Positions 1 through 16,895 of a stretch of 64,000 nucleotides of DNA are shown here, piece by piece. Source of the stretch: Syntrophorhabdaceae bacterium (GTDB lineage: Bacteria > Desulfobacterota > Syntrophorhabdia > Syntrophorhabdales > Syntrophorhabdaceae); contig OY762209.1 in NCBI GenBank assembly GCA_963665295.1, positions 2,272,001 to 2,336,000 of the forward strand, in the 5' to 3' direction. Position 1 is the stretch's first letter. Every line of letters begins with the position of its first letter. The translations under genes and the position numbers were made by a program. A model generated the notes under the pieces. The model worked only from the letters and a program-made list of their open reading frames with translations. It did not search any database and was not told the DNA's origin.

Positions 1-587
1 CCCGGTGGTCTGTATGGATGAAACCCCAAGACAACTGATCAAAGAAACGCGTACCCCGATTCCCCGCGCTCCGGGACGGCTCGAGCGTCACGACTACGAA
101 TACGAGCGATGTGGCGTCTGTACCGTATTTATGGCCAACGAACCATTGGCGGGCACGCGCCTGACCAAGGTATCGGAAAGGAGAACGAAGCGCGACTGGG
201 CGGAGTTCATCCGGGAACTTTCAGGACGGTATGGAAAGGCCAAAAGGATCACCCTTGTCATGGATAACCTGAACACCCATAAACCCGGCTCTCTTTATGA
301 AGCCTTTTCTCCCGAAGAGGCCAAACGCATCTGGGACCGCTTTGAATTCGTCTATACTCCCAAACATGGAAGCTGGCTCAATATGGCGGAGATTGAGCTT
401 AACGTGCTCATTCATCAATGCCTGAGTCGCCGGATCGACACTCTCGCCGAGGTCCACTCCGCCGTGTCTGCCTGGCAGGCCCATCGCGACAATCTCAACG
501 CAAAGGTGAACTGGCAATTTACTACTAAGGATGCGCGGGTGAAACTTAGGCGACTTTATCCGACATTAGATGAGTGACGTGACACTA
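1..587 (+). mobile_element. IS630-family element, right end
   Basis: The transposase stop is followed within ~10 bp by GTGACACTAG. CTAG at 585-588 fits the TA target of IS630. Confidence 0.75.
5..577 (+). CDS. IS630-family transposase, C-terminal DDE part (5' end outside window)
   Basis: Motifs CMDE, YEYERCG, LVMDNLNTH and YTPKHGSWLNMAEIE are typical of IS630/DDE_3 transposases. Confidence 0.93.
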   Translation: MVCMDETPRQLIKETRTPIPRAPGRLERHDYEYERCGVCTVFMANEPLAGTRLTKVSERRTKRDWAEFIRELSGRYGKAKRITLVMDNLNTHKPGSLYEAFSPEEAKRIWDRFEFVYTPKHGSWLNMAEIELNVLIHQCLSRRIDTLAEVHSAVSAWQAHRDNLNAKVNWQFTTKDARVKLRRLYPTLDE

Positions 588-912
588 GTCACAGATGTTC
601 CGAGATAAGGATGGGAATACGTTCATTTTCCGGAGAGCGGATAAGGGGGCTGCCATGGGAAGCATAGATGAATGGGTACACAAACTGGACGCTCTGGCAG
701 AAAAGGGCAAAGAGTTCAGATACGGCATTCATACCGCCTCTGGCGAACTACTTTCGAGCATCTACTCGTGGTCAGGAATCAGAACCGTGCAGTTGGAGAG
801 ATATTTCGAGGAGTCGGCCCCGGATGAACAGCATTTTCAAAGGATGTTGGAGCTTGCATGGCCTGTGAAAAGCGGAACGTGTCAATGAAAATGAGACACT
901 TCCATCAGATAT

Positions 913-1911
913 TTAGTGTACCCCGCCATCGCTCGTTGATAATGGCTTATTGATCCAGACGGCGTCAGGCAGTGACGCCGGTTTCGGCATCCTCCCCTTG
1001 AACCGTTCCGGATGTTTTTCATACGCAGCCCGCAGTACGTCCGTACGACCTTCAATGATCCTCAACGCTCTTCCATAATGGACGTCCTCGGGGGTGAGAA
1101 GACCTATCCCCGAATGGTAATGCTCGGTATTGTACCAGGGGAAGAATGTCTGGCAAAAGGCCCGGGCATCCTCAATGGAGCCGAACCTTTGAGGGAACTC
1201 GGGCCGGTACTTCATGGTCTTGAACTGAGATTCGGAATAGGGGTTGTCATTACTGACCGAAGGCCTCGAATGGCTCTTGGTGACCCCGAGATCGGCCATG
1301 AGCAGGGCGACGGGTTTCGACGTCATACTCGACCCCCTGTCCGCATGGATCAGGAGCTTACCGGGCTCTATCATTTGCTTCTCGCAGGTCTCCGCGATCA
1401 GTTTGCGAGCAAGGGCGGCAAGTTCCCTGTGGGCCACCATCCACCCCACCACATAGCGGCTGTAGATGTCGAGGATCACATAGAGGTAGTAGTAGGTCCA
1501 TTTTACGGAACCCTTGAGCTTCGTGATATCCCAGCTCCACGCCTCGTTGGGCGCCTTCGCGAGGATCTCCGGTTTTGCGTACCGGGGACGGGAGACCTGC
1601 CTCCTCCTTTCTTTCAGCTCACCTTCTTCTTCAAGGATCCGGTACATGGTGCGCACTGAACAGAGATAGCTCTTCTCGTCCAGGAGGGCCGCGTAGATTT
1701 CCCGGGGTGCTTTATCGATGAAGCGGTCCGAATGAAGGATATCAAGTACATCGTTCCGTTCCCCGAAGGAGAGGGCCAAGGGAGAGAGACGGTTCAAAGG
1801 TTCCTTCTCTTTCGGATGCTGCCACCGGTAAAAGCCCGCACGGGATACGTCGAGGGCGTTGCAGGCAGGGCGGATACCCACTTCATGGGCAAGCGATTGC
1901 GTGATGTTCAT
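913..1911 (-). CDS. IS3-family transposase OrfB (rve integrase core)
   Basis: Motifs WSWDITKL, ILDIYSRYVVGW, HADRGSSM, SNDNPYSESQFKTMKY. Confidence 0.93.
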   Translation of the reverse strand: MNITQSLAHEVGIRPACNALDVSRAGFYRWQHPKEKEPLNRLSPLALSFGERNDVLDILHSDRFIDKAPREIYAALLDEKSYLCSVRTMYRILEEEGELKERRRQVSRPRYAKPEILAKAPNEAWSWDITKLKGSVKWTYYYLYVILDIYSRYVVGWMVAHRELAALARKLIAETCEKQMIEPGKLLIHADRGSSMTSKPVALLMADLGVTKSHSRPSVSNDNPYSESQFKTMKYRPEFPQRFGSIEDARAFCQTFFPWYNTEHYHSGIGLLTPEDVHYGRALRIIEGRTDVLRAAYEKHPERFKGRMPKPASLPDAVWINKPLSTSDGGVH

Positions 1912-2305
1912 GACTTCTCCTCGCTCGACCCCTTGAGCAGCTCGGCCACTTTTTTTGGACCTCGATAATGAGCTCCGCCTGTTTCAGTTTATGGGTGAGC
2001 CTCGTGTTCTCCTTTTCCAGTTCGATGGTGCGACGGATAAGGGGATCAGGCTTTTGTGTGACGGGTCCTCTCTTTTTCGGGATGAGGCCCTGGTGAACCT
2101 GACGCCGCCATGAGGTGAGGCTCGATGAATAAAGTCCCTCTCTGCGCAGAAGCGCCCCTATCTCACCCTTCCCGGTACAGTTCTCCACCTCCTTGAGGAT
2201 ACGGAGCTTGTACGCCGCGGTGAATTTCCGGCGAACTGCCTTTTCCGGTACTTCCGGATCGGGGACTACCCTTGGTGATGCCATGACTGATTTCTTTTCT
2301 TCCAC
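1883..2305 (-). CDS. IS3-family transposase OrfA (HTH)
   Basis: RRKFTAAYKLRIL...GALLRREGLYSS HTH signature. Overlaps orfB; an A-rich stretch near 1950 may be a frameshift site. Confidence 0.88.
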   Translation of the reverse strand: MEEKKSVMASPRVVPDPEVPEKAVRRKFTAAYKLRILKEVENCTGKGEIGALLRREGLYSSSLTSWRRQVHQGLIPKKRGPVTQKPDPLIRRTIELEKENTRLTHKLKQAELIIEVQKKWPSCSRGRARRSHEHHAIACP

Positions 2306-2832
2306 GATCGTTCTTTCCTTCCCGCCCCCAAGAGTCTAAACTATTGGGTGGGAAGTGTCTCACTTATATTGGCACGGAGGGCGGAATACGATCTTCTCCG
2401 CCAGAAACCGGCATCAGTTTCACTGCAAAGGCGGAATGAAATATGGGAACAGGCCATGGGGGACATAAGGGAAATCGTTAGAGTTCGAGTCTCGCAACTG
2501 GTTGAGTGAAAGCAGCGCTGGGCGTCCTTTCTCATTTTGAACTGGTCATTCTGCCTGTCTTACCGTATAACGCTTCCTGCGCGAAAGCGGTAATTCCCAT
2601 CGGAAAGCAGTGTTGTCCTTTTTTCCTGAAAGCGATGAACGATCATTCTGAAGAGAGCGTTCTCCTCCATGTGGCGATCGGACACTGCCCGGTACCCCCA
2701 CCTTGGAATTTGCGATTGACAGTGGTAACCTATTCTGGTAACATCCGCTTAAGAACACGTTAGGCGATAGAAATAAGACGCAGCTTCGGTCAACAATGGA
2801 AGCCTGAGTTGAATAATGGTCAAGGCAGATGT

Positions 2833-3831
2833 ATGCGTTATTTCGGGTCAAAAGCATCTACGGTAGAGAAAGTTTATGAGCTTATCTCGCGCCGAGTACC
2901 GTCTGGATCATTCTGTGATCCATTTGGTGGCATTGGAGTGGTCGGGTCTTTCTTCAAGAACAAAGGCTACAGCGTCTGGACTGGTGATGCTCTGAGTTTT
3001 GCCTACTATTTCCAAATTGCGCGGATAGAAACCAACGTAATGCCACGCTTCGAGGGTGTCGTTAAAGCCCTGGCGCTGCGAACGCCCAGTGAAATAGCTG
3101 ACCGACTAAATTCCGCGAATCTCTCAGACGGATGGTTCGTGACTGAGTATGCAGAAAAACGACAATTTTTTACCAAAGACAACGCAAGACGCATATACGC
3201 GTGTATGACGTTAATACGTGATTGGGCTCAGGCTGGCAGCCTCAACAAAAAGGAGCATGCAATTCTATTGGCTTCGTTAATCGACAGCATCGATAGAGTC
3301 GCGAATACCGCGGGAACCTATTATGCGTATTTGAAGACGTGGCATGAAAAGGCACTGAGACCATTTCATTTTAGGTTACTTACTCATATCGTAGGGAATG
3401 AAGATTGTCACTGCTTTCTTGGAGATGCCAAGCGTCTTCTGAGCCAGCGGGCCTTTGACATAGTCTATCTTGATCCGCCATACAACGAGCGTTGTTATTC
3501 AAGATACTATCACCTACCAGAGGCAATAGCACGCGATGAGGTATCCGAGGCTCACGGGAAATCGGGAATCATGGAAGGAGAGAAACATGTTTCGGATTTC
3601 AACAAGCATTCGAAGGCTATGGATGCACTAAGGGAGACTCTCCGCAACGCCAGTTTTCGCCTTTTAGTATTTCATTACTCAGACGATGGCCTTATCAACC
3701 CAAGCGATATAAGAGGCATCCTTGGTTCCCGTGGAGAAATTGATGAGTATGTCATAGGTGGTAAAGGTTATACCACGAGACGCGGGCATAGGACTGTAAC
3801 CCACCGCCTTTACCTTGTCAGTAATGAGTAA
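2833..3831 (+). CDS. DNA adenine methyltransferase, D12/alpha class (FokI/NlaIII-like)
   Basis: N-terminal MRYFGSK, motif I FCDPFGGIGVVG, VANTAGTYYAYLK, motif IV VYLDPPYN...YSRYYH. ATG 2833 preferred over TTG 2809. Confidence 0.9.
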   Translation: MRYFGSKASTVEKVYELISRRVPSGSFCDPFGGIGVVGSFFKNKGYSVWTGDALSFAYYFQIARIETNVMPRFEGVVKALALRTPSEIADRLNSANLSDGWFVTEYAEKRQFFTKDNARRIYACMTLIRDWAQAGSLNKKEHAILLASLIDSIDRVANTAGTYYAYLKTWHEKALRPFHFRLLTHIVGNEDCHCFLGDAKRLLSQRAFDIVYLDPPYNERCYSRYYHLPEAIARDEVSEAHGKSGIMEGEKHVSDFNKHSKAMDALRETLRNASFRLLVFHYSDDGLINPSDIRGILGSRGEIDEYVIGGKGYTTRRGHRTVTHRLYLVSNE

Positions 3832-4765
3832 ATTTTTGCCCAGCTGGGACACGGATGATGTCAATACTTTGGTTGATTTCTCCAGGATTGAATTAATCGT
3901 GGCAGACTTAGATGGAACCTTGCTTTCTCCAGGTCAAATGGCGTTATACGAAACGATAAGGAGCCTTAACAGGAGTCTTGGATCCTATGGCGTTGCCTTA
4001 ACTCTGGCGACTGGCCGGAGCCTCTCTGGGGTGCATAACCTGCTCAGTACGCTATCGCTTCGGAAGGGCGTCCCTATAATCCTATATAATGGCAGTCTTG
4101 TGGTGAGGAACAAGACATTCGAAATATTGAGCCGAAAAACCATAGAAACTAACATCTTGCAGGCAATAGTTAATCTTTCCAGCGAATTGGGTGTGCCAGC
4201 GCTTGCGTACTTCTATACCGGCCCAACCAATCAACTGGCCTCATCATCTGATAACATCGAGTATGTGTTAGGCTGGGCAGAGGGAGGCCATGTTAGTCAT
4301 GAGTTTAATGGAATGCGGGTGGACTGGCAGGGTGGGCACAAAATCACCGAGAAAGCTAATCCTTCTGCCATACTGATTGACATTTCAACCAAAGGCGATT
4401 GTGCTCTTGCCATTCTGAGGCGCCTGCAAAAGGTCGTGGGTATTTCTGTTACTCATAGCGGCCAATCTTACCTGGAGATTAGGCCGGCGGATAGCAACAA
4501 AGGCGTGGCACTTGAAATGGCGGCGAGACTCTCTAGGATTGATCGATATAATATTCTGGCGATTGGGGACAACGATAATGATTTGGAAATGCTGAAGTGG
4601 GCTGGTATAGGGGTTGCCGTTGCTGGTTCTTCACCAAATGCTTTGCTCAGTGCAGATTATGTTAGCCGGCATGGGGTGATAGAAGGCGCAATAGAGGTTC
4701 TGCGTGTGGTAAGAAATGCACGACGATACTTCAGGCACATCGCAAAGGAGAGAAACAGTGAGTGA
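3824..4765 (+). CDS. Cof-type HAD-IIB phosphatase
   Basis: Motifs DLDGTLL, LATGR, ILYNG, YLEI...NKG, AIGDNDNDLEML. ATG overlaps the upstream stop (ATGAGTAA). Confidence 0.92.
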   Translation: MSKFLPSWDTDDVNTLVDFSRIELIVADLDGTLLSPGQMALYETIRSLNRSLGSYGVALTLATGRSLSGVHNLLSTLSLRKGVPIILYNGSLVVRNKTFEILSRKTIETNILQAIVNLSSELGVPALAYFYTGPTNQLASSSDNIEYVLGWAEGGHVSHEFNGMRVDWQGGHKITEKANPSAILIDISTKGDCALAILRRLQKVVGISVTHSGQSYLEIRPADSNKGVALEMAARLSRIDRYNILAIGDNDNDLEMLKWAGIGVAVAGSSPNALLSADYVSRHGVIEGAIEVLRVVRNARRYFRHIAKERNSE

Positions 4766-7322
4766 GATTGAACGCTGGGTTAAAGAACTGGAATCCTTCA
4801 AGGACAAATCCGAAAAATACTTCATGACGCAAGCAGAATTCGAAGCTGGATTAGATAGCGTTACTGGATTAGCCGATAGTCCGGTAGATGCCGTTCAGTA
4901 CCATATTGTCGGAAGTGCACCTTTTAACGCTATAGACATAGGTAGGCCAGGCACAGGGGATGCGATGTATGTCGATACAGTTACTATGGCTGATCCCCGC
5001 GGCTCGACATGCAAAACGTCGATTTGGACAAAACGAAATGCAGGAGTTGCGATTCATGCGTCCGCAGCCCTCGCTAAGGATTCTCTTGGCAAGCTAATAA
5101 AGGGGTATTGGAAGCCAGATCTGTTGGACAATAAAGCAAAATTACCTTCGCTCTTGATACCTAGGGCAACGCAAGTACTCGAAGATACAATACTGGACTT
5201 TGCAAAGACACGTGAAAGGACATTTCTTTTCTTTTGTGATCTAGACAAATTTAAATTGGTTAACGACACCTATGGAGAAAATGTGGGTGATCGTGTCATT
5301 TTGGAATTTGCATCAATTATCGAGAGAACTGTGATTCCCAATGCTGTAGCGCTTCACAGAAGCGGTGATGAGTTCATCGTATTTTGCCCCACAGACACTG
5401 TCGAAAGCGCGCTTTTTGTCGCCCACAAGATTATGAGAGAAGTGCGACAATACGACTTTCAAATCGGCAATTTGACAACAGATGTGTCCATTGGCATTAA
5501 AATAGTCGACCGTGAAACTCCTTGGAAGTCGTATAAGGATTTAGAGGATATGGCCGAAAAGGCATTGAAACCTAGCGGTCAAGGAAAGAGGCGTGGTATG
5601 GCCAGGTTTGCTGATGAGGTTGACCAAGTTGGCCTCCCGCTCACGAATGATTTATCTAAGTCGCTAGCCGTTTGTGTCGTGAAAAGCGGCATGGGCGCAG
5701 ATAACCCATTTGTGAGCCCTTGGCTGAACATGATATCGGAGCATGTGGAAATTTCAATCCAGGAAAGCTTCCCGAATATCTCCGGCATAAAAGAAGAGGT
5801 CGATACGATTGTAGACTGGATTAAGCCAAGTGTAGCAGTGGACACATTGCATGCAGGTACCCTTGGAAGCGAAGCGTCCTTGAAACCGTATTTTTCTCCA
5901 ATTGATATGGCGTTGGCAACAGCCCACGGAGTTTTTCGGGCGAGCCTGATGTCGGGCAATCAATCATTTAAAGACAAGAGCCTCAAGATATATTTTGATA
6001 GCAGTCAAGGCGCCTGTCAGTTGTGCCTGTGTCCGGATGGTGAAGTAATTATGCAATTTGGGACCGAGCCGTCCAGCTGGCCAGATACCATCGATTTAGG
6101 CGGATTTTTTCGGTCGTATGACGATAAACCCCGAAAAGCAATGGACTCTCGGGCAGCGCTTTTGGTGAAGATAGGGCATTCCAAGTTGGAATTGCCTGTC
6201 GCCATATTTGGAGAGATTATCGTTGTCGATGATCGTCCTACGCAGGGGGGCGGGTTGCCTGATTTTTGGGAAGCCACCATCGCCAGATTGGTTGCCCGCG
6301 TAGAATCCAATGCCAATATAATGGCGGTTTATATACTTGGAGAACATAAGTATGCCGCACAAACGATCGGACTGCTAAGAGATGTCGGGAACTGGGCTGA
6401 GAAAGCTGAGAGTATTGCGTCTAAGACGGGTATGTCCATTCATAGTATTTCTACCGCAGCCAGTCGTCTTAGCGGGAAGATTGTCTTTCCAGAAGACATT
6501 CGCCATCTATGCAATAATCTGATGAGCGTTCTTCTCGGTCGGCGTCTGCTTTATGATGTCATGTTGCCTGTTTTTTCGACAGAGAAATATCGAACCCTCC
6601 ACAGAGAACTGCTCATGGAAGGCATTGCCTTGTTAAGGGAGGACGGGTGTCGTGTGAAGACTATCGCGGAAGCATATCCCGTGGTCCTTGAAATCGCTCG
6701 CAAGGCGTCCCACAAGGCAAGGATCAAAGATCAAGCAGGGATGGAATTAAAAGAGCTTGTGGATTTCAAGGTTCTTCTGACCAACCCAAATCAGGATCTC
6801 GTCCCGTTGTTCTATCAGGAAGAGAAAGATTCTCTAGAGGGGTACTTCACGAGAGAATTTCAAACTGATACTGGTCTTTTCTTGAGTAAATTTAAAGAAG
6901 GAGGACAACTCGATGCGGTATTGACCCATCTTTCTACGCATATTCGTGACTTAAACCATCAGTTTGCCACTCGCAGGGGCATCTTGGTGGTTCCGCATGA
7001 TGTGGAAGAAGGGCATGACATTAGACCTCTGGGATTGATATCTATTCGTATTTTTCCAAGGTTTATGGATAACCGCGTACTCCTATATTACAGTTACACT
7101 TGGCGAACAGTAGAAGCCTTGGTTGGTTTCCCGTATAGCGTTTACGGATCAGTCAGGTTTAGTCAATACCTAACCGAAGAGGTTAAAAGGCGCTTACCCA
7201 GAGAACAGTCTAGACGGATTGAGATGGGGGAAGTGTCATACATAGCTCACAGTTTACATATATTCATGGATGATTATGGCGAAAACATTGCTCGCAGGAT
7301 TGTCGACGATGCCAGTCTCTGA
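4758..7322 (+). CDS. GGDEF (SGDEF) domain fused to a C-terminal thymidylate-synthase-like domain
   Basis: CDLDKFKLVNDTYGENVGD...RSGDEF at ~5230-5375. The C-terminus has KTIAEAY, KELVDFKV..TNP, TRRGILV, WRTVEALVGFPYS and GEVSYIAHSLHIF, in the motif order of the thymidylate synthase fold. GTG start with AGGAG, overlapping the HAD stop. Confidence 0.82.
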   Translation: MSEIERWVKELESFKDKSEKYFMTQAEFEAGLDSVTGLADSPVDAVQYHIVGSAPFNAIDIGRPGTGDAMYVDTVTMADPRGSTCKTSIWTKRNAGVAIHASAALAKDSLGKLIKGYWKPDLLDNKAKLPSLLIPRATQVLEDTILDFAKTRERTFLFFCDLDKFKLVNDTYGENVGDRVILEFASIIERTVIPNAVALHRSGDEFIVFCPTDTVESALFVAHKIMREVRQYDFQIGNLTTDVSIGIKIVDRETPWKSYKDLEDMAEKALKPSGQGKRRGMARFADEVDQVGLPLTNDLSKSLAVCVVKSGMGADNPFVSPWLNMISEHVEISIQESFPNISGIKEEVDTIVDWIKPSVAVDTLHAGTLGSEASLKPYFSPIDMALATAHGVFRASLMSGNQSFKDKSLKIYFDSSQGACQLCLCPDGEVIMQFGTEPSSWPDTIDLGGFFRSYDDKPRKAMDSRAALLVKIGHSKLELPVAIFGEIIVVDDRPTQGGGLPDFWEATIARLVARVESNANIMAVYILGEHKYAAQTIGLLRDVGNWAEKAESIASKTGMSIHSISTAASRLSGKIVFPEDIRHLCNNLMSVLLGRRLLYDVMLPVFSTEKYRTLHRELLMEGIALLREDGCRVKTIAEAYPVVLEIARKASHKARIKDQAGMELKELVDFKVLLTNPNQDLVPLFYQEEKDSLEGYFTREFQTDTGLFLSKFKEGGQLDAVLTHLSTHIRDLNHQFATRRGILVVPHDVEEGHDIRPLGLISIRIFPRFMDNRVLLYYSYTWRTVEALVGFPYSVYGSVRFSQYLTEEVKRRLPREQSRRIEMGEVSYIAHSLHIFMDDYGENIARRIVDDASL

Positions 7323-8085
7323 ATTTAGCACATGCATTCTGGTGTGCGATAGAGCGGATTTTGAGTTCTTCGTCTCAAATTCTCTATGTGATGATCGTCC
7401 CTCCGAAGCCAACGGATTATATCTGATTCCGGTTGCGACTGGAATAGAGGAGCTAGAGGCGATACTGAATGCCGTGCCGCAAAGACACGTTCGGCGTTAT
7501 TTGGACCGGTTTTACCTGTGGGGTCATGATAATTCCCCCGATGCTTGGCAACGGATGGTTGATAAATTTTTTGAGCTTATCGCTTATAAATATGAGATAT
7601 TTATTGACGTAGAGCGCAACAGGGAGAACATACGTAATCTATTGCGGTTCTTTCATCAGTTAAGCTACCGAACTCAGCGAGAAGAAATAATTGATTATGG
7701 ATGTGGGACGGGTCTCTCTTTGACGGTCGCAGATGGAGTGAAAAGTAAACTCATTGGGGTGGATAGAAGCCCAGCAATGCGCCATATTGCCCGCAGCAAG
7801 GGAATGACTGTCTGGAGTTTCCGCACGTTGGAGAGCAAGCCCCATAATTCTCTGGCGGGGGCCTTCGCGTCCTATGTTCTGCACCTGTCACCGAGTTTGG
7901 ATGGGATCGGTTTACTTTGGGACCGGATCGAAAAAGGAGGCGTCTTAGTTGCCAATTTCCATAAGAATCAGGGCGTAGAGTGGGTGACTGAGTATCTGCG
8001 ACGTAAGAGGTGTCTATTCGAGAACATTGAACCACCGATAGGTTCTGAGAGGCATGGAGTATACATCGCGTATGTTAAGTCGTAA
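7309..8085 (+). CDS. Class I SAM-dependent methyltransferase
   Basis: IIDYGCGTG motif I, GVDRSPAM, ASYVLH. ATG 7309 overlaps the upstream stop by 14 bp. Confidence 0.85.
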   Translation: MPVSEFSTCILVCDRADFEFFVSNSLCDDRPSEANGLYLIPVATGIEELEAILNAVPQRHVRRYLDRFYLWGHDNSPDAWQRMVDKFFELIAYKYEIFIDVERNRENIRNLLRFFHQLSYRTQREEIIDYGCGTGLSLTVADGVKSKLIGVDRSPAMRHIARSKGMTVWSFRTLESKPHNSLAGAFASYVLHLSPSLDGIGLLWDRIEKGGVLVANFHKNQGVEWVTEYLRRKRCLFENIEPPIGSERHGVYIAYVKS

Positions 8086-9895
8086 AGTGAAGCAGCCAGG
8101 CTTTGTCCAATTCGATAAGTATTCGGATTATTTTACAAACCGGTCCGAATTGGATATTGATTTCGCTAACGCTCGCATCCTAGCAGACATCGGGCTTCTG
8201 CCCCTCTATAAGGTTGGCGAGAAAGAAGTTGTCTTAGTGAATGACTTAGACTCTATTATTCCAATCCTTTCAAAAATGTCCCTATTATACGACACTTCAT
8301 TGTTTGCAGACAGTTTTCTAAGTAAAGGTGGGCCTCTGAAAATTTCTCCGCGCAAAGGTACCATGGTTGATATATTACCGATGAGCTCAAGAATGCAGAT
8401 TGATCCTGTCTTTTATGCGGCAGCTCGAAATCTCATGACCTTCATTTGTAAATTGGTCGATGACTCCGAGACTGAGAATACTACATCGCTTGATTATTTC
8501 CTTCCAGGGCGTGTATCAACGTCATCTGATCAAGTGAGACGCTATATTGAGAGACAGAAACGACGAGCGGACCTCACCTACTTATCACATGCAAGCCAGT
8601 TCGCAAATACGGCCTACTATATGGGGTCGAAGCGCATGTTAAGGGCGTTCCTGGTTGAGGCGATAGCGGAAGTGTTACCCGATGATGGCACGGTTGTCGA
8701 TTTGATGTGTGGCTCCGGTGCTGCTTCGGGAGCCTTCAATAAAGTCTGGAATACGATAGCCTCAGACGCTCAAGAATTTTGTACTACCCTAGCTCTCGTG
8801 CAGGGTGGTGGATTCTCGGCTGGCCAAGCGCAGAAATTGCTGGATCTAATTCTCCCAATCGCTCGTGACCATGCCAATATATTGCGAGGCAAGCTTCTTT
8901 ATTTTCTTCAGTGGGAGGACAGAATCCTTCACGGTGACACCGGGGCCAAATTGCTGTCGGAATACGAAAGATTTGTGATGTCCTTCCCGACCTATCCGCA
9001 CGGAACTGCTCATGGTGGATGGGACCCTCTGCAGGAAGTAGCTATGCGAAAGAAAGACATTCACCTCTACCCCTATTGTCTATTTGTCGCGTACTATGCA
9101 AATTTGTATTTTGGGTTGAGGCAGTCGGTGGAGATCGACAGTTTAAGATATGCACTAGACCAGGTAAAGGACGCGGTAGAAAAACAATGGGGAATGGGAG
9201 CTCTGATCGCGACGCTGAGTTCTTTGGGCACAACTTATGCTGGCCACTTTGCTCAACCTGTAGCAACTTCAACCAGACCTCTCAGTTTGCAGACGTTTTC
9301 AAAGATTTTAGAGATCAGAAGTTTTTCCATAATCCACGAGTTCAGCGTTAGGTTGCTTAGTCTGGCGGCTGAAAGTGAACGATCGAAAAATCCCATTGAG
9401 GTCATACCCGGGAGATGGTCAGACACCATGCCAGTCCTTGACAAAATTCTTGATAATCGCAAGAGAACCCTTGTCTACCTTGACGCGCCATATACCAGAG
9501 AGGAATACAGCCGTTATTATCATATTCTTGAGACCATTGTTTCTTATGGGTACCCTTCCTGTATAGGAGTGGGAAAAATTCCAGACAAACAGGCGAAGGA
9601 AAGGTTTCGTTCGGAGTTCTTTACAAAAGACAAAGCCAAGTTCGAGGCGGCTTTAGTCAAAATCATTGCAGAGGTCTTGAGCCGTGGCTGGATATGCGCT
9701 TGGAGTTATTCAGATTCTGGAAAAGCGAGCATCGTAACAGTTGTCGAGCAAGTACTGGGTAACGTGGACTGTCGCGCTCGGTCATTTTCGGTCCCTTATG
9801 AACATAAATCGCAAGGTGGTAAATCACCCAAGAAAGTGATCGAGTACCTCGTCATATTTCTGCCAGAGGAGACAAAAGGTTCGTTCGACATTTGA
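8072..9895 (+). CDS. Second D12-class DNA adenine methyltransferase with N-terminal extension (DAPY motif)
   Basis: YMGSKR, VVDLMCGSG, GHFAQP, VYLDAPY...YSRYYHILET, FRSEF. ATG 8072 with GGAG overlaps the upstream stop. Confidence 0.85.
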   Translation: MLSRKVKQPGFVQFDKYSDYFTNRSELDIDFANARILADIGLLPLYKVGEKEVVLVNDLDSIIPILSKMSLLYDTSLFADSFLSKGGPLKISPRKGTMVDILPMSSRMQIDPVFYAAARNLMTFICKLVDDSETENTTSLDYFLPGRVSTSSDQVRRYIERQKRRADLTYLSHASQFANTAYYMGSKRMLRAFLVEAIAEVLPDDGTVVDLMCGSGAASGAFNKVWNTIASDAQEFCTTLALVQGGGFSAGQAQKLLDLILPIARDHANILRGKLLYFLQWEDRILHGDTGAKLLSEYERFVMSFPTYPHGTAHGGWDPLQEVAMRKKDIHLYPYCLFVAYYANLYFGLRQSVEIDSLRYALDQVKDAVEKQWGMGALIATLSSLGTTYAGHFAQPVATSTRPLSLQTFSKILEIRSFSIIHEFSVRLLSLAAESERSKNPIEVIPGRWSDTMPVLDKILDNRKRTLVYLDAPYTREEYSRYYHILETIVSYGYPSCIGVGKIPDKQAKERFRSEFFTKDKAKFEAALVKIIAEVLSRGWICAWSYSDSGKASIVTVVEQVLGNVDCRARSFSVPYEHKSQGGKSPKKVIEYLVIFLPEETKGSFDI

Positions 9896-9964
9896 AGGTC
9901 CTGACAAATGCATAGATGCTTCCCATAATTTACGATCAGGGCCAAAACGTCGCCAGCTCGTTTC

Positions 9965-10123
9965 ATAGGGAGGCGATAGGGACGTCCATTGAATGATCAA
10001 ATTATCTGCGGTTTGCAGAAAACTAAAGGTTTAGGCGTCGAAGAAATCCCTAATGATGTCAACCTTTAACTGTTTCTTCCCGAAATCATTGCCGAGTCAA
10101 AGGAGTCCGTGCTCGACTTATAG
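9965..10123 (+). repeat. ~160 bp imperfect direct repeat, copy 1 (copy 2 at 25609-25768)
   Basis: Near-identical stretch ATAGGGAGGCGATAGGGACGTCC...GGAGTCCGTGCTCGACTTATAG. This copy ends exactly at the IS1634 terminus. Confidence 0.93.
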
Positions 10124-11865
10124 CCTGACTTCCCGCCCTATTGTAACGAGGCCGGCCCCCTTACCTCCAGCCTCGCATAAAGTTCCATCTGTTTCTTCGT
10201 CATCTCCCCCACCATGAGACGCTGCCCCGGCACTTCGTAACATTCGATGACATCAAGCTCATCCAGGACTTCCTGCAGCGTGTAATCTTTGAAGAGGTTG
10301 CTCTCCTGCATCTTCCTGGTGATGTGAGATAAGAAGATAAGGGCGATGAACTGGACAAAGAGCTTGCCGTCGAGACTCTGCTCGGAGGAGACGGCAAGCC
10401 TGCGTACGTTCAGCCGTTCCTTCAGGTTCTCGAAGGCCTTCTCCACCAGGTCCTTGTTCCGGTAGATGGTAAGCGCTTCAAGGGGGTCTTTTATTTCGTT
10501 GCTTAGGAGGGCAAAGTATCCGTAATTGCGTTTCGCCTCTATGAGAACCTCTTCTTTGGCAACCACTTTTGTCCCCCGGACCGGCGTACTCTTCACCTCG
10601 AAGTATTTCGCATAGTATTTCTCATGATCCGGATAGCGAGTACCGCGTTCCAGTTCTTCCTGCCAATCAGAGAGACGGGTAGTGAAGGCCAGCTCATCCT
10701 CTAAGGCTCTCTCCGGAGAGAAATACAGATGAAGATACATCCGGCGGTCCTCCGCGAGGGTGTCTCCTTTGTGGGGCCGATCCTGTACATAGTCCCAGGT
10801 GATCGGCAAAGAATAGGCATAGAGCCCATAGGTCTTACTGTAATGGGTGAAGCTCCGCATCTTCTCCCGGACGGGGTCAAGGTGCCTCTCCACGAACGTA
10901 AGGGGCAGCCGTGCGGCAATGAGGAACTTCATATGATGTTTATACAGGTCGTTGATATTGGCCGCACTGTAGAAACCCCGGTCCAGGACCACCTTGATCT
11001 TTTCATAACCCAGGGCGTTCATGTCGCTGAGCAATCTCCTCAATGTCTTCACATCGGGGATGTTGCCCGGGAGCTTCCGGTAATAGAAGGGCAGGCGTGA
11101 CTGCTGTCCGAAGAGGAGTGCAAGGTTGATCTGGGGAAGGTGCTCATGGTCCTTGTTCTTCCCGTAGCGTACCTGCCGCAGGCACTGGGAGTAACTGGAG
11201 ATGGAGGTGCTGTCATAGGCGAGATATTCCTTCTCTACCCGGCGCTTCCCCTGAAGGGTAAAGAACCGCTGTCTTCCTTCCTCGGTGATCGCGGCAAAGA
11301 GGTCGCTACTCCTCTGGGAGGAGATGACCTCCCCATGTGGATGCCAATGAACGTGAGCCCACCGGGGGAAGCGGCTCAAGGGGTTCTTGTCCTCCAATAT
11401 GAGGTAATAGGCGAGGGAGAGGATCTTACGATAGCTATCGGGGAAACAGGTCCTCAAATCCTTTGTCACCCCTATCTCTTCCCCGATACGGTCGAAGAGG
11501 TAGGTGGCCCCATAAAACAACCGGGCAGTCCGGGTGATGGGCACCGGGCCAGGCTTGATCGTCTTTGGCTCCACCTTCTTTTTCCTGGTGGGGATGATTT
11601 CCCCAGTCTCTTCGTCTACCCTTCCGATGCACACACGCTTTGCCCTGGACTGCTTCCTCTCCTTATCCCAGAATGAGACCGATTCATAGGCATACCTGAC
11701 CCCGGTCTTCTTATTGGTCTGATAGACGATCGCCATGCATTCCCTCCTTCATCGTTACAACACTATAACTTGTAACGATGACAAATGCAAGGGGAATCAC
11801 ACCTAATTCTATGTTTATTAATGGGTTAGATGTGTTTCCTCGTTATAATTGCGCGGGAAGTCGGG
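10124..11865 (-). mobile_element. IS1634-family insertion sequence
   Basis: Inverted repeats CCTGACTTCCCGC (10124) and GCGGGAAGTCGGG (ends 11865). The flanks (TTATAG / TAATTA) are not duplicated. Confidence 0.88.
10138..11736 (-). CDS. IS1634-family transposase
   Basis: YAYES..WD...KQSR N-terminus; AYDSTSISSYS, LPQINL, GNIPDVKT, LDRGFYS, YRNKDLVEKAFENLK. Confidence 0.92.
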   Translation of the reverse strand: MAIVYQTNKKTGVRYAYESVSFWDKERKQSRAKRVCIGRVDEETGEIIPTRKKKVEPKTIKPGPVPITRTARLFYGATYLFDRIGEEIGVTKDLRTCFPDSYRKILSLAYYLILEDKNPLSRFPRWAHVHWHPHGEVISSQRSSDLFAAITEEGRQRFFTLQGKRRVEKEYLAYDSTSISSYSQCLRQVRYGKNKDHEHLPQINLALLFGQQSRLPFYYRKLPGNIPDVKTLRRLLSDMNALGYEKIKVVLDRGFYSAANINDLYKHHMKFLIAARLPLTFVERHLDPVREKMRSFTHYSKTYGLYAYSLPITWDYVQDRPHKGDTLAEDRRMYLHLYFSPERALEDELAFTTRLSDWQEELERGTRYPDHEKYYAKYFEVKSTPVRGTKVVAKEEVLIEAKRNYGYFALLSNEIKDPLEALTIYRNKDLVEKAFENLKERLNVRRLAVSSEQSLDGKLFVQFIALIFLSHITRKMQESNLFKDYTLQEVLDELDVIECYEVPGQRLMVGEMTKKQMELYARLEVRGPASLQ

Positions 11866-13296: not shown

Positions 13297-13563
13297 AAAT
13301 GTACTTTTTTAGGAAGAATAGAAGGTAGAGGAGGTTTTTTAATAGTTTCTCCCGGTAGAATCTTTTGCGCATTTGCAAAATCCGTTCAACCTCGAACACC
13401 AAATCCGGAAAACCTCGAACACCTGATCCGGTGATATCCGAACAGTGAATCCGGAAAACCTCGAACACTTTTTCTCACTCACCGGATTCGGTGTTCGAGT
13501 AAAACGGATTTGTTACCCTCCCTGCCCGACATGATAGACTGCGCCCAAAAACGGAGGGCGCGG

Positions 13564-15111
13564 TTGAAGAAACAGGGGAGGAAATTATCCATGAAGAAAC
13601 TGAAGGAAGTTGCACGGCTGTATCTGGAACTGGGCCTGGGAGTGCGCCCTATCGCCCGGGCATGCAACATCTCCGCGTCCACCGCCTCGGTCTATGTGGA
13701 GAGACTCAAGGGCCTCGGAGCCACGTATGGGCAAATATGTGAGATGGACGAAGACGTTCTCTCAGGACTCCTTTTCCCCAAAGAGGAGAGGGCAACAAAG
13801 GCGCTGCCCGATTTTGACTATCTCACGACGGAACTCAAGAAAAAGAAGGTAACCCTCCAGATCCTTTACGAAGAGTACCGCCAGAACAATCCGGAGGGAT
13901 ATGAGCGGACCCAGTTCTACCACCTCTACCATGAGTGGGCCAAAAGGGCGGACCCCGTGATGCGTCTCACTCATAAGGCGGGAGAGAAGATGTTCGTCGA
14001 CTTCTCCGGAGACAAGGCCCACTACCAGGACGGCGCCACCGGCAAGACGGTTGAAGTCGAGCTCTTCGTCTCCGCACTCGGAGCAAGCTCCTATATATTC
14101 GCCCGGGCTGTTAAGGATCAGACAAAGGAGAGCTTCGTGGAATGCAACGTGAGGGCGCTCAATTACTACGGAGGCTCCCCCGAGTGCATCGTGCCTGACA
14201 ACTTGAAGGCCGGCGTGACCGATGCGTGTTACTATGATCCCGAGATCAACAAGACCTTCGCCGCCATGGCGGAACACTATCATATTGCGGTGCTGCCCAC
14301 GAGAAAGGGGAAAGCGAAGGACAAGGCCAAGGTGGAGAACGCCGTGCTCCAGGCCCAGAGGAGAATCTTGGCGGTACTGAGAAACCGGACGCTCTTCAGT
14401 ATCGGAGAGCTCAATGGCGCCATCCAGGAAGAAACGGAGAAGCTCAACAGAAGACCCATGGCGGTGATAGGCAAGTCCCGGTATGACCTCTTTGTGGAGA
14501 TAGAGAAGCCCGCACTAAAGCCGCTACCGGAAGAACGGTTCGTGATCGCGTCATGGCTTAACGCCACGGTCCATATCGACTACCATGTCGCGGTGGAGAA
14601 GACCTATTACAGCGTGCCCTACACCTTGATCGGCCATGAACTGGATGTGAGGTATACCTCCTCCGTGGTGGAAGTCTACGACCGCGGCAAAAGAGTCGCC
14701 TCTCATATGAGAATCAATAAGGCAGGCGCCTTCGTGACGGAGAACCTCCATATGCCCCGCGAGCACCGGCAATATCTTGAGTGGACGCCCGAGCGCATCA
14801 AGAAATGGGGAGCAAAGATCGGCCCCCATACAAAAGAGTTTATGGACGAGGTCATGGCGCACCGGGACCATCCCGAACAAGGCTTCCGAAGCTGCCTTGG
14901 TATTATCCGCTTATCAAAGACATATTCTCCGGAGCGGGTAGAGAAGGCATGCAAAAGAGCCCTGGAGCTTCAGGCGTATAATTACCGGAGCGTCAAATCT
15001 CTCCTTGAAAAGAATCTCGAGAATCTCACTCCGGCAGAAAGAAAGAACATCGTCCCCCTCCATGACAACATCCGGGGAAAAGACTATTACGGCGAGGTGA
15101 CCCATGATTGA
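13564..15111 (+). CDS. istA: IS21-family transposase IstA
   Basis: N-terminal HTH; MFVDFSG, IVPDNLKAGV, KDKAKVENAV. TTG start with GGAGG inferred. Confidence 0.93.
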   Translation: MKKQGRKLSMKKLKEVARLYLELGLGVRPIARACNISASTASVYVERLKGLGATYGQICEMDEDVLSGLLFPKEERATKALPDFDYLTTELKKKKVTLQILYEEYRQNNPEGYERTQFYHLYHEWAKRADPVMRLTHKAGEKMFVDFSGDKAHYQDGATGKTVEVELFVSALGASSYIFARAVKDQTKESFVECNVRALNYYGGSPECIVPDNLKAGVTDACYYDPEINKTFAAMAEHYHIAVLPTRKGKAKDKAKVENAVLQAQRRILAVLRNRTLFSIGELNGAIQEETEKLNRRPMAVIGKSRYDLFVEIEKPALKPLPEERFVIASWLNATVHIDYHVAVEKTYYSVPYTLIGHELDVRYTSSVVEVYDRGKRVASHMRINKAGAFVTENLHMPREHRQYLEWTPERIKKWGAKIGPHTKEFMDEVMAHRDHPEQGFRSCLGIIRLSKTYSPERVEKACKRALELQAYNYRSVKSLLEKNLENLTPAERKNIVPLHDNIRGKDYYGEVTHD

Positions 15112-16712: not shown

Positions 16713-16895
16713 GTCGTCCCCTATGAATGCTTGGCTCAACAATAATCGATGCGCTGTTACGTCGGACATCTTTATGACAAAAATTCTTTGACTATTTCGG
16801 TCCATAGTGTCAGAATTGAACCATCCAGAGAACATATTGGTTCAGCAGAGCTTGCGCGGAAAGTTGTCCGTATATTATACGCTGGGAAGGGCAAA

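Follow-up and report, generated by a model that had tools for sequence, protein, structure and literature searches.

A nucleotide cyclase palm of the GGDEF type and a C-terminal domain that structure modelling identifies as a real thymidylate synthase (TS) fold, devoid of the nucleophilic cysteine, are joined in one protein (hereafter the GGDEF-TS protein), and this protein is the signature of a fixed, rare, mobile and uncharacterised unit of five genes (Table 1; positions refer to the window, i.e. the whole stretch of 64,000 nucleotides that was analysed). We regard the chances as about evenly balanced that the C-terminal domain serves as a nucleotide-binding, dimerising pseudo-TS that would control the cyclase in an undescribed, defence-like system. 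A search of the openly accessible literature returned no description of either the fusion or the cassette.

Table 1. Genes, protein domains and bordering elements of the cassette in the window
Feature	Position	Strand	Basis and remarks
IS3-family element, left bound of cassette	873..2359	-	rve, HTH_Tnp_1; about 10 genome copies by unitig depth
D12a, short D12-class N6-adenine-type DNA methyltransferase	2809..3831	+	PF02086, 74.6 bits
Cof-type HAD-IIB phosphatase	3815..4765	+	PF08282, E 1.9e-40; TIGR00099, 134.9 bits
GGDEF-TS protein, signature protein of cassette	4716..7322	+	868-aa ORF; database form 854 aa, start GTG 4758
GGDEF (palm) nucleotide cyclase domain	5178..5579	+	PF00990; SGDEF motif in window copy
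Middle domain	5640..6617	+	Helical part, six-stranded beta part, Rossmann-like part; invariant motif DDRPTRGGGLPDFWE
Domain predicted to have the TS fold, without nucleophile Cys	6633..7307 (about)	+	Residues 626-850 of 854-aa form; fold, profile alignment, dimer prediction
Class I SAM-dependent methyltransferase, small-molecule type	7270..8085	+	Methyltransf_23/25/11 matches
D12b, long D12-class methyltransferase-like protein	8054..9895	+	PF02086, 31.6 bits; N-terminal extension, motif D-A-P-Y
DDE_Tnp_1 (IS4-like) transposase, right bound	10138..11736	-	PF01609, E 1e-12; single-copy unitig ends at 10054

All five genes, in the order D12a, phosphatase, GGDEF-TS, (class I methyltransferase), D12b, are found in 33 of the 35 non-redundant loci with room on both sides, and D12a is the first cassette gene in 49 of the 50 loci with room upstream; the class I methyltransferase is fused with D12b, as proteins of 684-862 aa, in loci L005, L053, L055, L064, L087 and L103. 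The catalytic motifs of the partners are each conserved to at least 95%: FGG and DPPY of D12a in 48 cassette homologues, the DxD (D31, D33), K229 and D252/D256 of the phosphatase in 57, DxGCGxG of the class I methyltransferase in 65, and CGSG, motif-IV D477, P479, Y480 and RYYH of D12b in 44. Judged by these residues, all four partners are catalytically intact. D12a, whose true start is likely the Met of MRYFGSK near 2833, matches the PADLOC type II methyltransferase model PDLC03287 at E 4e-60, and D12b matches models of the same kind at E about 1e-13. No nuclease domain was detected in the five genes by Pfam, NCBIfam or PADLOC, neither the GGDEF-TS protein nor the phosphatase matched any family in PADLOC-DB v2 (defence-system models), and for the neighbouring genes PADLOC returned generic methylase models only.

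The cassette is thinly but widely spread, with 23 loci among the genomes of 185,579 species, belonging to about ten phyla plus one Methanoregulaceae archaeon, and one IMG/VR contig carries it whole beside holin- and VanY-like genes. In the window it lies between two insertion elements, the IS3 unitig (1488 bp) having a depth of 301 versus 31.5 for the unitig that holds the cassette (2352-10054), and an OLD-family nuclease and an Mrr-nSTAND3 protein are encoded within 12 kb of it.

A gene for a CapV-type lipase stands directly upstream of the cassette in 13 loci, and the two of these lipases that were scanned with NCBIfam exceed the NF041079 cut-off of 200 with 266 and 241 bits. In a tree made with FastTree, for which SH-like values are the only support, the loci with the lipase group together as one clade (10 of 15 rows, support 95). 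A SLATT_4 protein is encoded upstream in a single locus, L003, and 35 further ORFs upstream of the lipase genes included no CD-NTase. No recognised effector lies upstream in the window or in 26 of the 41 informative non-redundant loci, and the host genome has no CapV-type lipase; a blastx comparison of positions 2306-2835 with the ORFs of all loci had no match below E 1.7, so no effector remnant is seen upstream in the window, and the 85-aa ORF at 2506-2763 matches no Pfam family. Small unannotated ORFs upstream in other loci were considered as candidates and are probably spurious, as they have no family matches and seven of the nine checked are without a TM-like segment. Genes of another kind accompany the cassette elsewhere, namely a dUTPase directly upstream in L009, L014, L037, L052, L070 and L071 as fetched (four loci among the 41 that are informative and non-redundant), and small P-loop kinases downstream in four loci, AAA_28-type and directly adjacent in L061, L064 and L083 and a weaker kinase-like P-loop protein in L077; found in a minority of loci, these genes suggest a part in nucleotide metabolism and not sensing alone. 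The idea that the lipase form is confined to hosts without c-di-GMP networks is not supported: with five hand-chosen genomes on each side, of unknown quality, those bearing the lipase carry 2, 26, 6, 6 and 5 GGDEF matches and those without it 12, 2, 3, 8 and 11.

The GGDEF-TS protein consists, in this order, of an N-terminal domain, the GGDEF palm, a middle domain and the TS-like domain, an architecture shared by 233 relatives, and its AlphaFold2 model, computed from an 87-row alignment, has a pLDDT of 91.0 and a pTM of 0.87. The palm (PF00990 at residues 155-288, 67.8 bits against a cut-off of 23.8; TIGR00254, 71.2 bits against 37.4) superimposes on diguanylate cyclases at a VIA Z of about 20, and its metal-binding and GDEF catalytic residues are kept in the alignment: D161, D163 and D204 in 87 of 87 rows, G203, E205 and N169 in 86, and D178 in 78, whereas position 202 varies, with G in 43 rows and S in 39. 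By analogy with PleD, we take N169 and D178 to be guanine-contact positions. The RxxD I-site is absent from the palm, and three relatives also weakly touch the Cas10/Cmr2 palm2 model. The host genome has 18 GGDEF matches, i.e. a c-di-GMP network exists, and among them the signature domain is a divergent outlier at 71.7 bits, against 121-183 bits for the 14 canonical copies. The middle domain, which when modelled by itself has a pLDDT of 92.2, contains a strand-GGGLPDF-helix motif and the invariant residues D491, R493, P494, G498, L500, D502 and F503. The best wide VIA match is MtrA at Z 7.4, with none at 8 or above; Foldseek found nothing at E <= 0.001, its weak FNR-like rows (1tll at probability 0.80, 2qtz and 7c3b; range 0.25-0.80) having E >= 0.014; an atlas search gave no usable match, and neither VIA nor Foldseek pointed to a nuclease-like fold. 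The middle domain is thus a fold without a clear relative, the absence of matches not making it a new one.

That the C-terminal stretch of about 225 residues has the TS fold had been proposed from the sequence alone, with a structure check in mind, and the AlphaFold2 model bears this out. VIA-align places TS-fold structures at Z 15-21 (rmsd 2.1-2.9 over 186-197 residues), the closest being 9iqc_A, a phage flavin dCMP monooxygenase (Z 20.7, rmsd 2.4, 197 aligned), followed by MilA 5jnh_A (Z 18.4), ThyA 3ix6_B (Z 16.0, rmsd 2.6, 186 aligned) and T4 dCMP hydroxymethylase 6l18_A (Z 15.2), and Foldseek recovers the same families at E 3.4e-7 to 2.6e-6, the latter value for VZV TS. Sequence relatives of the domain number 240 representatives at E <= 0.001 among 1.84 billion sequences; 127 of the 150 matches listed are at least 700 aa long, with the match at the C-terminal end, so that the domain is all but confined to the architecture of the GGDEF-TS protein. 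A sequence match to a solved TS was sought with a profile of the domain against PDB sequences and gave chance rows only (E >= 0.13), and a tblastn search of 50,697 phage records with the domain gave no match. Identity to the listed relatives reaches 67% in the TS-like domain as against 33-48% over the whole protein. This pattern, in the best conserved part of the protein and with many invariant polar residues, is no less compatible with an enzyme than with a sensor.

To our knowledge, every TS-fold protein studied so far is an enzyme that attacks the C5 of a pyrimidine by means of a cysteine. The alignment by hhalign of the family's C-terminal columns with E. coli ThyA and 23 archaeal-type TS relatives (Prob 74.7%, E 3.2e-6, 197 columns) indicates that the equivalents of ThyA R126, R127, R166 and H207 are kept, with a one-residue register doubt at the RR pair, and that D169 has become Glu, N177 Ser and Y209 Phe; the host's own archaeal-type TS, used as the reference, gives the same pairings. 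R126', R127' and R166 of ThyA clamp the phosphate of the nucleotide. The sequence-only reading had arrived by eye at RSCD changed to RTVE, HLY to HIF and N177 to Ser, just as hhalign now does; its further claim that Cys146 is replaced by PLGL holds insofar as the DIRPLGL stretch contains no Cys anywhere, and its exact placement is less secure, the register of the PC motif being uncertain by one residue, so that the position of Cys146 is Pro or Leu. The base-specificity position, Asn177 in ThyA and Asp in dCMP enzymes, is Ser794 in all 87 rows, as are R739, R740, R783, E786, S832 and H834, and the full set of invariant residues of the domain comprises R648, D658, R739, R740, R768, W782, R783, E786, S794, S798, Y828, S832 and H834, with D838 in 86 of 87 rows. 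No Cys column of the domain is conserved; C631, at the N-terminal edge, is in 73 of 87 rows, and every other column has Cys in 10% or fewer. By comparison, the characterised C5-modifying members of the fold all keep Cys146, the 5-hydroxy-dCMP synthases included, according to PMC13326640, which also describes phage flavin-dependent hydroxylases of the TS fold.

The TS-like domain is further predicted to form a TS-style homodimer, with an ipSAE of 0.83 against 0.01 for the best control. Among the solved proteins of the tool's calibration, 20 of 30 one-chain pairs and 1 of 23 single chains attained this mark; the pass may reflect likeness to solved TS dimers. The runs have at least 86% of contacts in common at a pLDDT of at least 85, and the predicted interface holds residues 735-747 and 783-784, including R739, R740 (the RR loop) and R783. 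The earlier proposal of a repurposed dNMP/folate-binding sensor or dimerisation module thereby gains on its dimerisation side, by prediction.

How might such a protein work? The TS-like domain would be unable to carry out the Cys-dependent C5 chemistry of the characterised superfamily members; instead, a nucleoside monophosphate-like ligand would bind a pocket built across the TS-style homodimer, and its binding would hold, or release, the two GGDEF domains in the dimer geometry needed for cyclic-dinucleotide synthesis. The cyclase output might then serve as an alarm that CapV or SLATT picks up in the loci that have them, and the cassette would be a counterpart of CBASS in which a GGDEF cyclase does the work of the CD-NTase. 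Because the genomes with the lipase form carry GGDEF genes of their own, plain c-di-GMP would make a poor private alarm signal, and the product may therefore differ. The five-gene cassette and its CBASS-type effectors in one clade, both absent from the sequence-only reading, turn the question away from housekeeping by c-di-GMP and towards a system that is mobile and probably defensive, although this model leaves the roles of the three methyltransferases and the phosphatase unexplained. A more specific version, which we think unlikely, casts the TS-derived pseudoenzyme as an immune receptor for nucleotide metabolites of phage infection, whose binding across the TS-style dimer would switch on the GGDEF cyclase. 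Its ligand might be dUMP, a 5-hydroxymethyl- or 5-hydroxy-pyrimidine dNMP made by phage TS homologues, or dNMPs from degraded methylated host DNA, and its cyclic dinucleotide would be kept apart from housekeeping c-di-GMP, perhaps by way of the cassette's methylases and phosphatase; CapV or SLATT, in the loci that have them, would respond to it.

The simplest alternative, an active and ordinary TS with a repositioned nucleophile that became fused to a GGDEF protein by chance, could appeal to the fold itself and to C631, yet it is scarcely credible. PF00303, the Pfam TS family, does not match the GGDEF-TS protein at E <= 0.1, and the methanogen-type TS model TIGR03283 matches residues 646-854, the stretch singled out in the sequence-only reading (profile 4-198 of 201), with only 28.6 bits (E 8.8e-7; 32.3 bits in the genome search), far below its curated cut-off of 174.55 bits. 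C631 is missing from 14 of the 87 relatives, six of the 87 have no Cys in the domain at all, N177 and Y209 are Ser and Phe, and both fusion and operon are conserved across phyla. The host, moreover, already owns ThyX (254 bits) and, in another gene, a Cys-bearing archaeal-type TS-like protein that scores 78.7 bits on TIGR03283 and keeps PPC, RSWD, PQN and HLY. The absence of a PF00303 match and of a conserved Cys, together with the Ser at N177, argue against an ordinary TS and to that extent support the suggestion, made at the outset from the sequence, that the domain is probably not a catalytic TS. Could it nevertheless be an enzyme of another sort? A reading that we find possible but rather doubtful gives the TS-like domain a new, Cys-independent chemistry on a pyrimidine nucleotide and makes the cassette a small pathway, in which the phosphatase, the class I methylase and, in some lineages, a dUTPase and a P-loop kinase would yield a modified nucleotide or nucleoside, which might act as a private second messenger, poison replication or feed into DNA modification as a precursor, with the GGDEF domain either cyclising the product or regulating the pathway. 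The domain is the most highly conserved of the protein, with E786, H834, S794, S832, Y828 and D658 invariant and D838 nearly so, and catalytic motifs are kept in all accessory enzymes; since lipase-bearing hosts own GGDEF genes, a modified signal would make sense. The dUTPase in six loci and the kinases in four argue in the same direction, but they belong to a minority of loci, and the weak FNR-like rows, which together with the GGGLPDF motif of the middle domain favour this reading, fall below significance, with no VIA Z of 8 or more. The closest structure, 9iqc, is a TS-fold enzyme with unexpected flavin chemistry, whereas the characterised C5-modifying members keep Cys146, the 5-hydroxy-dCMP synthases among them (PMC13326640), and the signature family has no conserved Cys.

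A further alternative, which strikes us as improbable, views the cassette mainly as a DNA-modification or epigenetic module, in which two strand-specific adenine methylases would serve an asymmetric site and the GGDEF-TS protein would link the status of DNA or nucleotides with the ordinary c-di-GMP network of the host, not with defence. In its favour are D12a as a typical type II methylase by PADLOC, the motifs I and IV kept by both D12 proteins and the lack of a nuclease, and it agrees with the c-di-GMP network of the host and with the conserved guanine-contact positions of the palm. However, the sporadic spread across domains of life, one archaeon included, the position of the window copy between IS elements with defence-island neighbours, and the recruitment of CBASS-type effectors in one clade all speak against it. 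A widespread, strongly conserved Cys-less TS-fold family fused to a cyclic-dinucleotide cyclase would either be the first to employ the fold for regulation or as a pseudoenzyme, or bring a new chemistry to it. If the cassette is a defence system, it would constitute a GGDEF-driven branch of cyclic-nucleotide immunity, tied to DNA methylases and nucleotide-handling enzymes, and the immune-receptor version, if true, would amount to a new class of such immunity, whose sensor is a dead enzyme that detects metabolites. With five or six genes, the cassette is of a size that makes a direct test in laboratory strains feasible.

The components of the cassette each resemble a known system and depart from it. 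With the TS superfamily (ThyA, T4 gp42, MilA, the phage flavin-dependent 5-hydroxy-dCMP synthase 9iqc/9iqu, the archaeal-type TS of TIGR03283), the TS-like domain has the fold and motif order in common, but where ThyA has the nucleophile Cys, N177, Y209 and D169, it has no Cys, Ser, Phe and Glu, and, unlike the superfamily, it is, throughout the matches listed, a C-terminal domain or a fragment, which usually belongs to a GGDEF protein of about 850 aa. Diguanylate cyclases (PleD, WspR, DgcZ and the Hypr-GGDEF GacA, 6d9m) share with the signature palm the fold, the [G/S]GDEF motif, the metal Asp residues and the Asn/Asp guanine-contact positions, whereas the signature palm is divergent, lacks the I-site, has some relatives that touch Cas10 palm2, and is fused to two domains without an earlier GGDEF association in the literature searched. 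As in type II or orphan D12-class adenine methyltransferase modules, D12a matches REBASE-derived type II methylase models, and neither D12 gene has lost its SAM and DPPY-type motifs; type II restriction-modification, however, pairs its methylase with an endonuclease, whereas the cassette has no nuclease and its methylases are always linked to the GGDEF-TS protein, the phosphatase and a third methylase. The likeness to CBASS lies in a nucleotide cyclase and a CapV-type lipase or SLATT 2TM protein within one operon and in a mobile, patchy spread. Whereas CBASS has a CD-NTase as its cyclase and an effector in its operon, the only cyclase of the cassette is a GGDEF domain, its effector is found in one clade only and is absent from the window, and the genes that constantly accompany the cyclase encode three methyltransferases and a HAD phosphatase. 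We know of no CBASS type with these four partners, and type IV CBASS, with its base-modifying accessory genes, offers a loose parallel.

The C-terminal ~225 residues of the GGDEF protein, which a sequence-only reading had assigned to a thymidylate synthase (TS) fold with a rewired active site, are predicted to adopt just that fold in a confident AlphaFold2 model built from 87 relatives (pLDDT 91.0, pTM 0.87). When the whole model was compared with 48,161 PDB representatives, with no Foldseek pre-filter, the top match fell on residues 626-850 and was a phage HY126 enzyme, the flavin-dependent dCMP monooxygenase (9iqc_A; Z 20.7, rmsd 2.4, 197 residues, 15% identity); the same residues matched MilA (Z 18.4), ThyA from three bacteria (Z 16.0) and T4 dCMP hydroxymethylase (Z 15.2), and Foldseek concurred (E 3.4e-7 to 2.6e-6). 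GGDEF (residues 155-288, 67.8 bits) is the sole Pfam domain of this GGDEF-TS protein, TIGR03283 (methanogen-type thymidylate synthase) touches residues 646-854 weakly (28.6 bits, E 8.8e-7, against an NCBIfam cut-off of 174.55), and no PADLOC v2 model matches. The public protein collection has the GGDEF-TS protein in an 854-aa form (P0001, the numbering of residues 626-850), whose GTG start at 4758 agrees with the conserved N-terminus of the relatives.

How much of a TS active site does this domain keep? The C-terminal columns of the 87-row family alignment were compared by hhalign with a MAFFT alignment of ThyA-side sequences, comprising E. coli ThyA (NC_000913.3), the archaeal-type TS-like protein of the host and 22 relatives of that protein within the host phylum (Prob 74.7%, E 3.2e-6, 197 columns). 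ThyA R126/R127 fall on an invariant RR pair (R739, R740; register in doubt by one residue), R166-S-C-D169 on R783-T-V-E786, N177 on S794, D205 on S832, H207 on H834 and Y209 on F836; at the P-C motif position the family has [S/A/T]-P-L-G-L, with Cys146 opposite Pro or Leu, depending on register. The pairings proposed earlier by eye (RSCD with RTVE, N177 with Ser, HLY with HIF) were thereby reproduced, and the proposed loss of Cys146 at PLGL was borne out, no conserved Cys column being present in the TS-like domain among the 87 relatives. BLASTP against the host archaeal-type TS gave the identical RSWD/RTVE and HLY/HIF pairing (E 0.003). On sequence grounds, the TS-like domain of this family lacks the Cys nucleophile and retains the arginine residues of the TS active site. 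When 121 genomes of the host phylum were sampled, archaeal-type TS-like genes turned up in 51; none exceeds the NCBIfam cut-off, and most carry TNQ at the position of the ThyA RR pair.

Two copies of residues 612-854, modelled with the family alignment, gave a predicted homodimer (ipSAE 0.83, 0.83 and 0.86, against 0.01 for the best control; at least 86% of contacts common to the runs; pLDDT at least 85), whose symmetric interface of 735-747 (the RR loop), 761-771 and R783-R764 contacts would match the expectation for a TS-style dimer with shared sites. In calibration, 20 of 30 proteins with a solved one-chain pair passed the dimer mark, as did 1 of 23 whose solved structure is a single chain; because TS dimers are themselves solved, the pass may reflect mere likeness to them.

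Residues ~120-288 resemble diguanylate cyclases (Z about 20), and the palm is intact in its conserved residues: D161, D163 and D204 are invariant among the 87 relatives, G203, E205 and N169 are kept in 86 each and D178 in 78, and N169 and D178 would, as in PleD, contact guanine. The residue ahead of GDEF is G in 43 relatives and S in 39, no RxxD I-site is present, and three relatives also weakly touch the Cas10/Cmr2 palm2 model. Among the 18 GGDEF matches of the host, the cassette copy is an outlier (71.7 bits, against 121-183 bits for 14 canonical copies). The middle domain, modelled on its own (pLDDT 92.2), contains an invariant DDRPTRGGGLPDFWE motif, and no solved structure clearly resembles it (the highest Z is 7.4, and Foldseek gave nothing at E <= 0.001). 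A hint that it may bind a dinucleotide comes from its strand-GGGLPDF-helix motif and from weak Foldseek matches, below significance, to flavin reductase modules of the FNR type (1tll, prob 0.80; 2qtz; 7c3b).

A search of 1.84 billion proteins with the C-terminal 268 residues returned 240 representatives at E <= 0.001; among the 150 matches listed of these, 127 have at least 700 aa and match at their C-terminal end, and the shorter proteins look like fragments. Loci came from one-genome-per-species contigs (23), metagenomes (78) and viral contigs (1), 92 holding the gene after removal of nine duplicates; the genome loci are assigned by their record titles to Acidobacteriota, Armatimonadota, Bacteroidota, Bacillota, Lentisphaerota, Planctomycetota, Actinomycetota, Chloroflexota, a deltaproteobacterium and a Methanoregulaceae archaeon. 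The sequence-only reading had missed that the GGDEF-TS ORF adjoins four partner genes, with which it forms a cassette of fixed composition: of 50 loci with upstream room, 49 have the D12-class methylase and the phosphatase there, the class-I and long methylases lie downstream in 37 of 46 with room (in a further six, they are fused or the long one alone was detected), and the complete, ordered set of five occurs in 33 of the 35 loci whose flanks both have room. The pattern is broken in L019 and L023, where a GGDEF-TS fragment is followed by genes of other kinds, in L022, where a phosphatase ORF was not detected, and in L077, where the same holds for the class-I methylase. Catalytic motifs of all four partner families are kept at 95% or above. 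In six loci (L005, L053, L055, L064, L087, L103) the class-I and long D12 methylases form one ORF of 615-862 aa, which argues that they act jointly. Full-text literature searches returned no description of the GGDEF-TS fusion or the cassette.

Features of the window and of the host genome (C1; L025 and L027 are stretches of it)
Feature	Position	Strand	Remarks
IS3 element	873-2359		left of cassette; unitig at about ten times cassette depth
D12-class adenine methylase	2809-3831		overlaps or abuts next cassette gene
Cof-type HAD phosphatase	3815-4765		overlaps or abuts GGDEF-TS ORF
GGDEF-TS ORF	4716-7322	+	868 aa
Middle domain of GGDEF-TS protein	5640-6617		326 residues
Class-I SAM methylase	7270-8085		overlaps or abuts GGDEF-TS ORF
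Long D12-class methylase-like protein	8054-9895		overlaps or abuts preceding cassette gene
IS4-like element	10138-11736		right of cassette
Further IS elements	2-577, 13510-15108, 21580-23097, 23527-25044		
OLD-family ATPase-TOPRIM nuclease	16749-18896	+	AAA_15 + OLD-like TOPRIM
Mrr-type restriction domain fused to nSTAND3 NTPase	19157-21415	+	
Host ThyX and archaeal-type TS-like gene	C1:2974960-2975574 (L025 1300-2157) and C1:4307918-4308514 (L027)		

In the window, the cassette occupies a single-copy unitig of 7,703 bp (2352-10054) with a GC of 0.45-0.48, against 0.52-0.56 in the flanks, and its setting is a mobile defence island. Within 12 kb downstream lie a Mu-like transposase, two IS66 transposases, the OLD nuclease and the Mrr-nSTAND3 protein, and beyond the island genes housekeeping genes resume; the nuclease and the Mrr-nSTAND3 protein, side by side with transposases around them, look like two further defence genes of the island. 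The dense IS load comprises IS630-like (DDE_3), IS3, IS4-like, Mu-like and two near-identical IS66 elements; in all four runs the IS3 unitig has one T more than the window, behind 1949, and the window copy therefore differs by one base from the others. No effector or effector remnant was found upstream of the window cassette, nor any CapV-type lipase in the host genome.

Elsewhere, in 13 loci, the cassette is immediately preceded by a patatin lipase gene in the same orientation. Both lipases scanned pass the NCBIfam model for the CBASS cGAMP-activated phospholipase (266 and 241 bits, cut-off 200), all three scanned against PADLOC CBASS phospholipase effector models match (E 1e-87 to 1e-104), and none of 35 ORFs farther upstream of the lipase genes is a CD-NTase; L003 carries a SLATT_4 two-TM effector. 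The upstream flank is informative for 41 of 57 non-redundant full-length proteins (10 lipase, 1 SLATT, 4 dUTPase, 26 other), the nine duplicates and GGDEF-TS proteins below 780 aa, including lipase loci L021 and L022, being left out. CBASS-type effectors are clade-specific: in a FastTree phylogeny the lipase loci fall within a single 15-row clade (SH-like support 95), and the window protein lies outside it, nearest to a viral-contig copy. That copy (L106 11867-12891, an IMG/VR contig; 46-47% identity) is closely followed by genes for a 3TM holin-like protein and a VanY-like peptidase, with RadC on its upstream side, and the cassette may be carried by a prophage or GTA-like element. In L061, L064 and L083 the cassette is immediately followed by a small P-loop kinase of AAA_28 type, and in L077 by a P-loop protein with a weaker likeness to kinases. 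The metagenome locus L063 has a further nucleotide-metabolism neighbour, perhaps by chance: the large subunit of a class-II-like ribonucleotide reductase (501-3017), encoded 124 bp ahead of the cassette in the same orientation.

What, then, might the fusion do? We give an even chance to a model in which the TS-like domain would form a TS-style dimer and bind, across it, a ligand resembling a nucleoside monophosphate; this binding would control the cyclase, whose product would serve as an alarm signal in the manner of CBASS. Against this model, hosts with the lipase form still have 2-26 GGDEF genes each, which argues for a signal other than plain c-di-GMP. Also against such a sensor stands the fact that the majority of loci, the window among them, have no known effector. 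The very high conservation of the TS-like domain and its invariant polar residues would suit an enzyme equally well, and the dUTPase and kinase neighbours suggest nucleotide metabolism; a Cys-independent enzyme pathway, which draws on these same observations, seems to us less likely than the sensor model. The sensor model also leaves three methylases and a phosphatase without explanation; a methylation-coupled housekeeping role we consider improbable.

That the domain is an ordinary TS is scarcely credible: it has no conserved Cys, and the host, which encodes ThyX (254 bits) as well as a TS-like protein of archaeal type whose PPC, RSWD, PQN and HLY motifs are all intact, does not need it as a TS. 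For this family, an ordinary TS whose cysteine has shifted elsewhere is excluded, since the only frequent Cys column, C631 at the domain edge, is filled in 73 of 87 relatives, six of the 87 have no Cys in the domain, and even phage 5-hydroxy-dCMP synthases, according to PMC13326640, keep Cys146, whereas the GGDEF-TS domain has Pro or Leu there.
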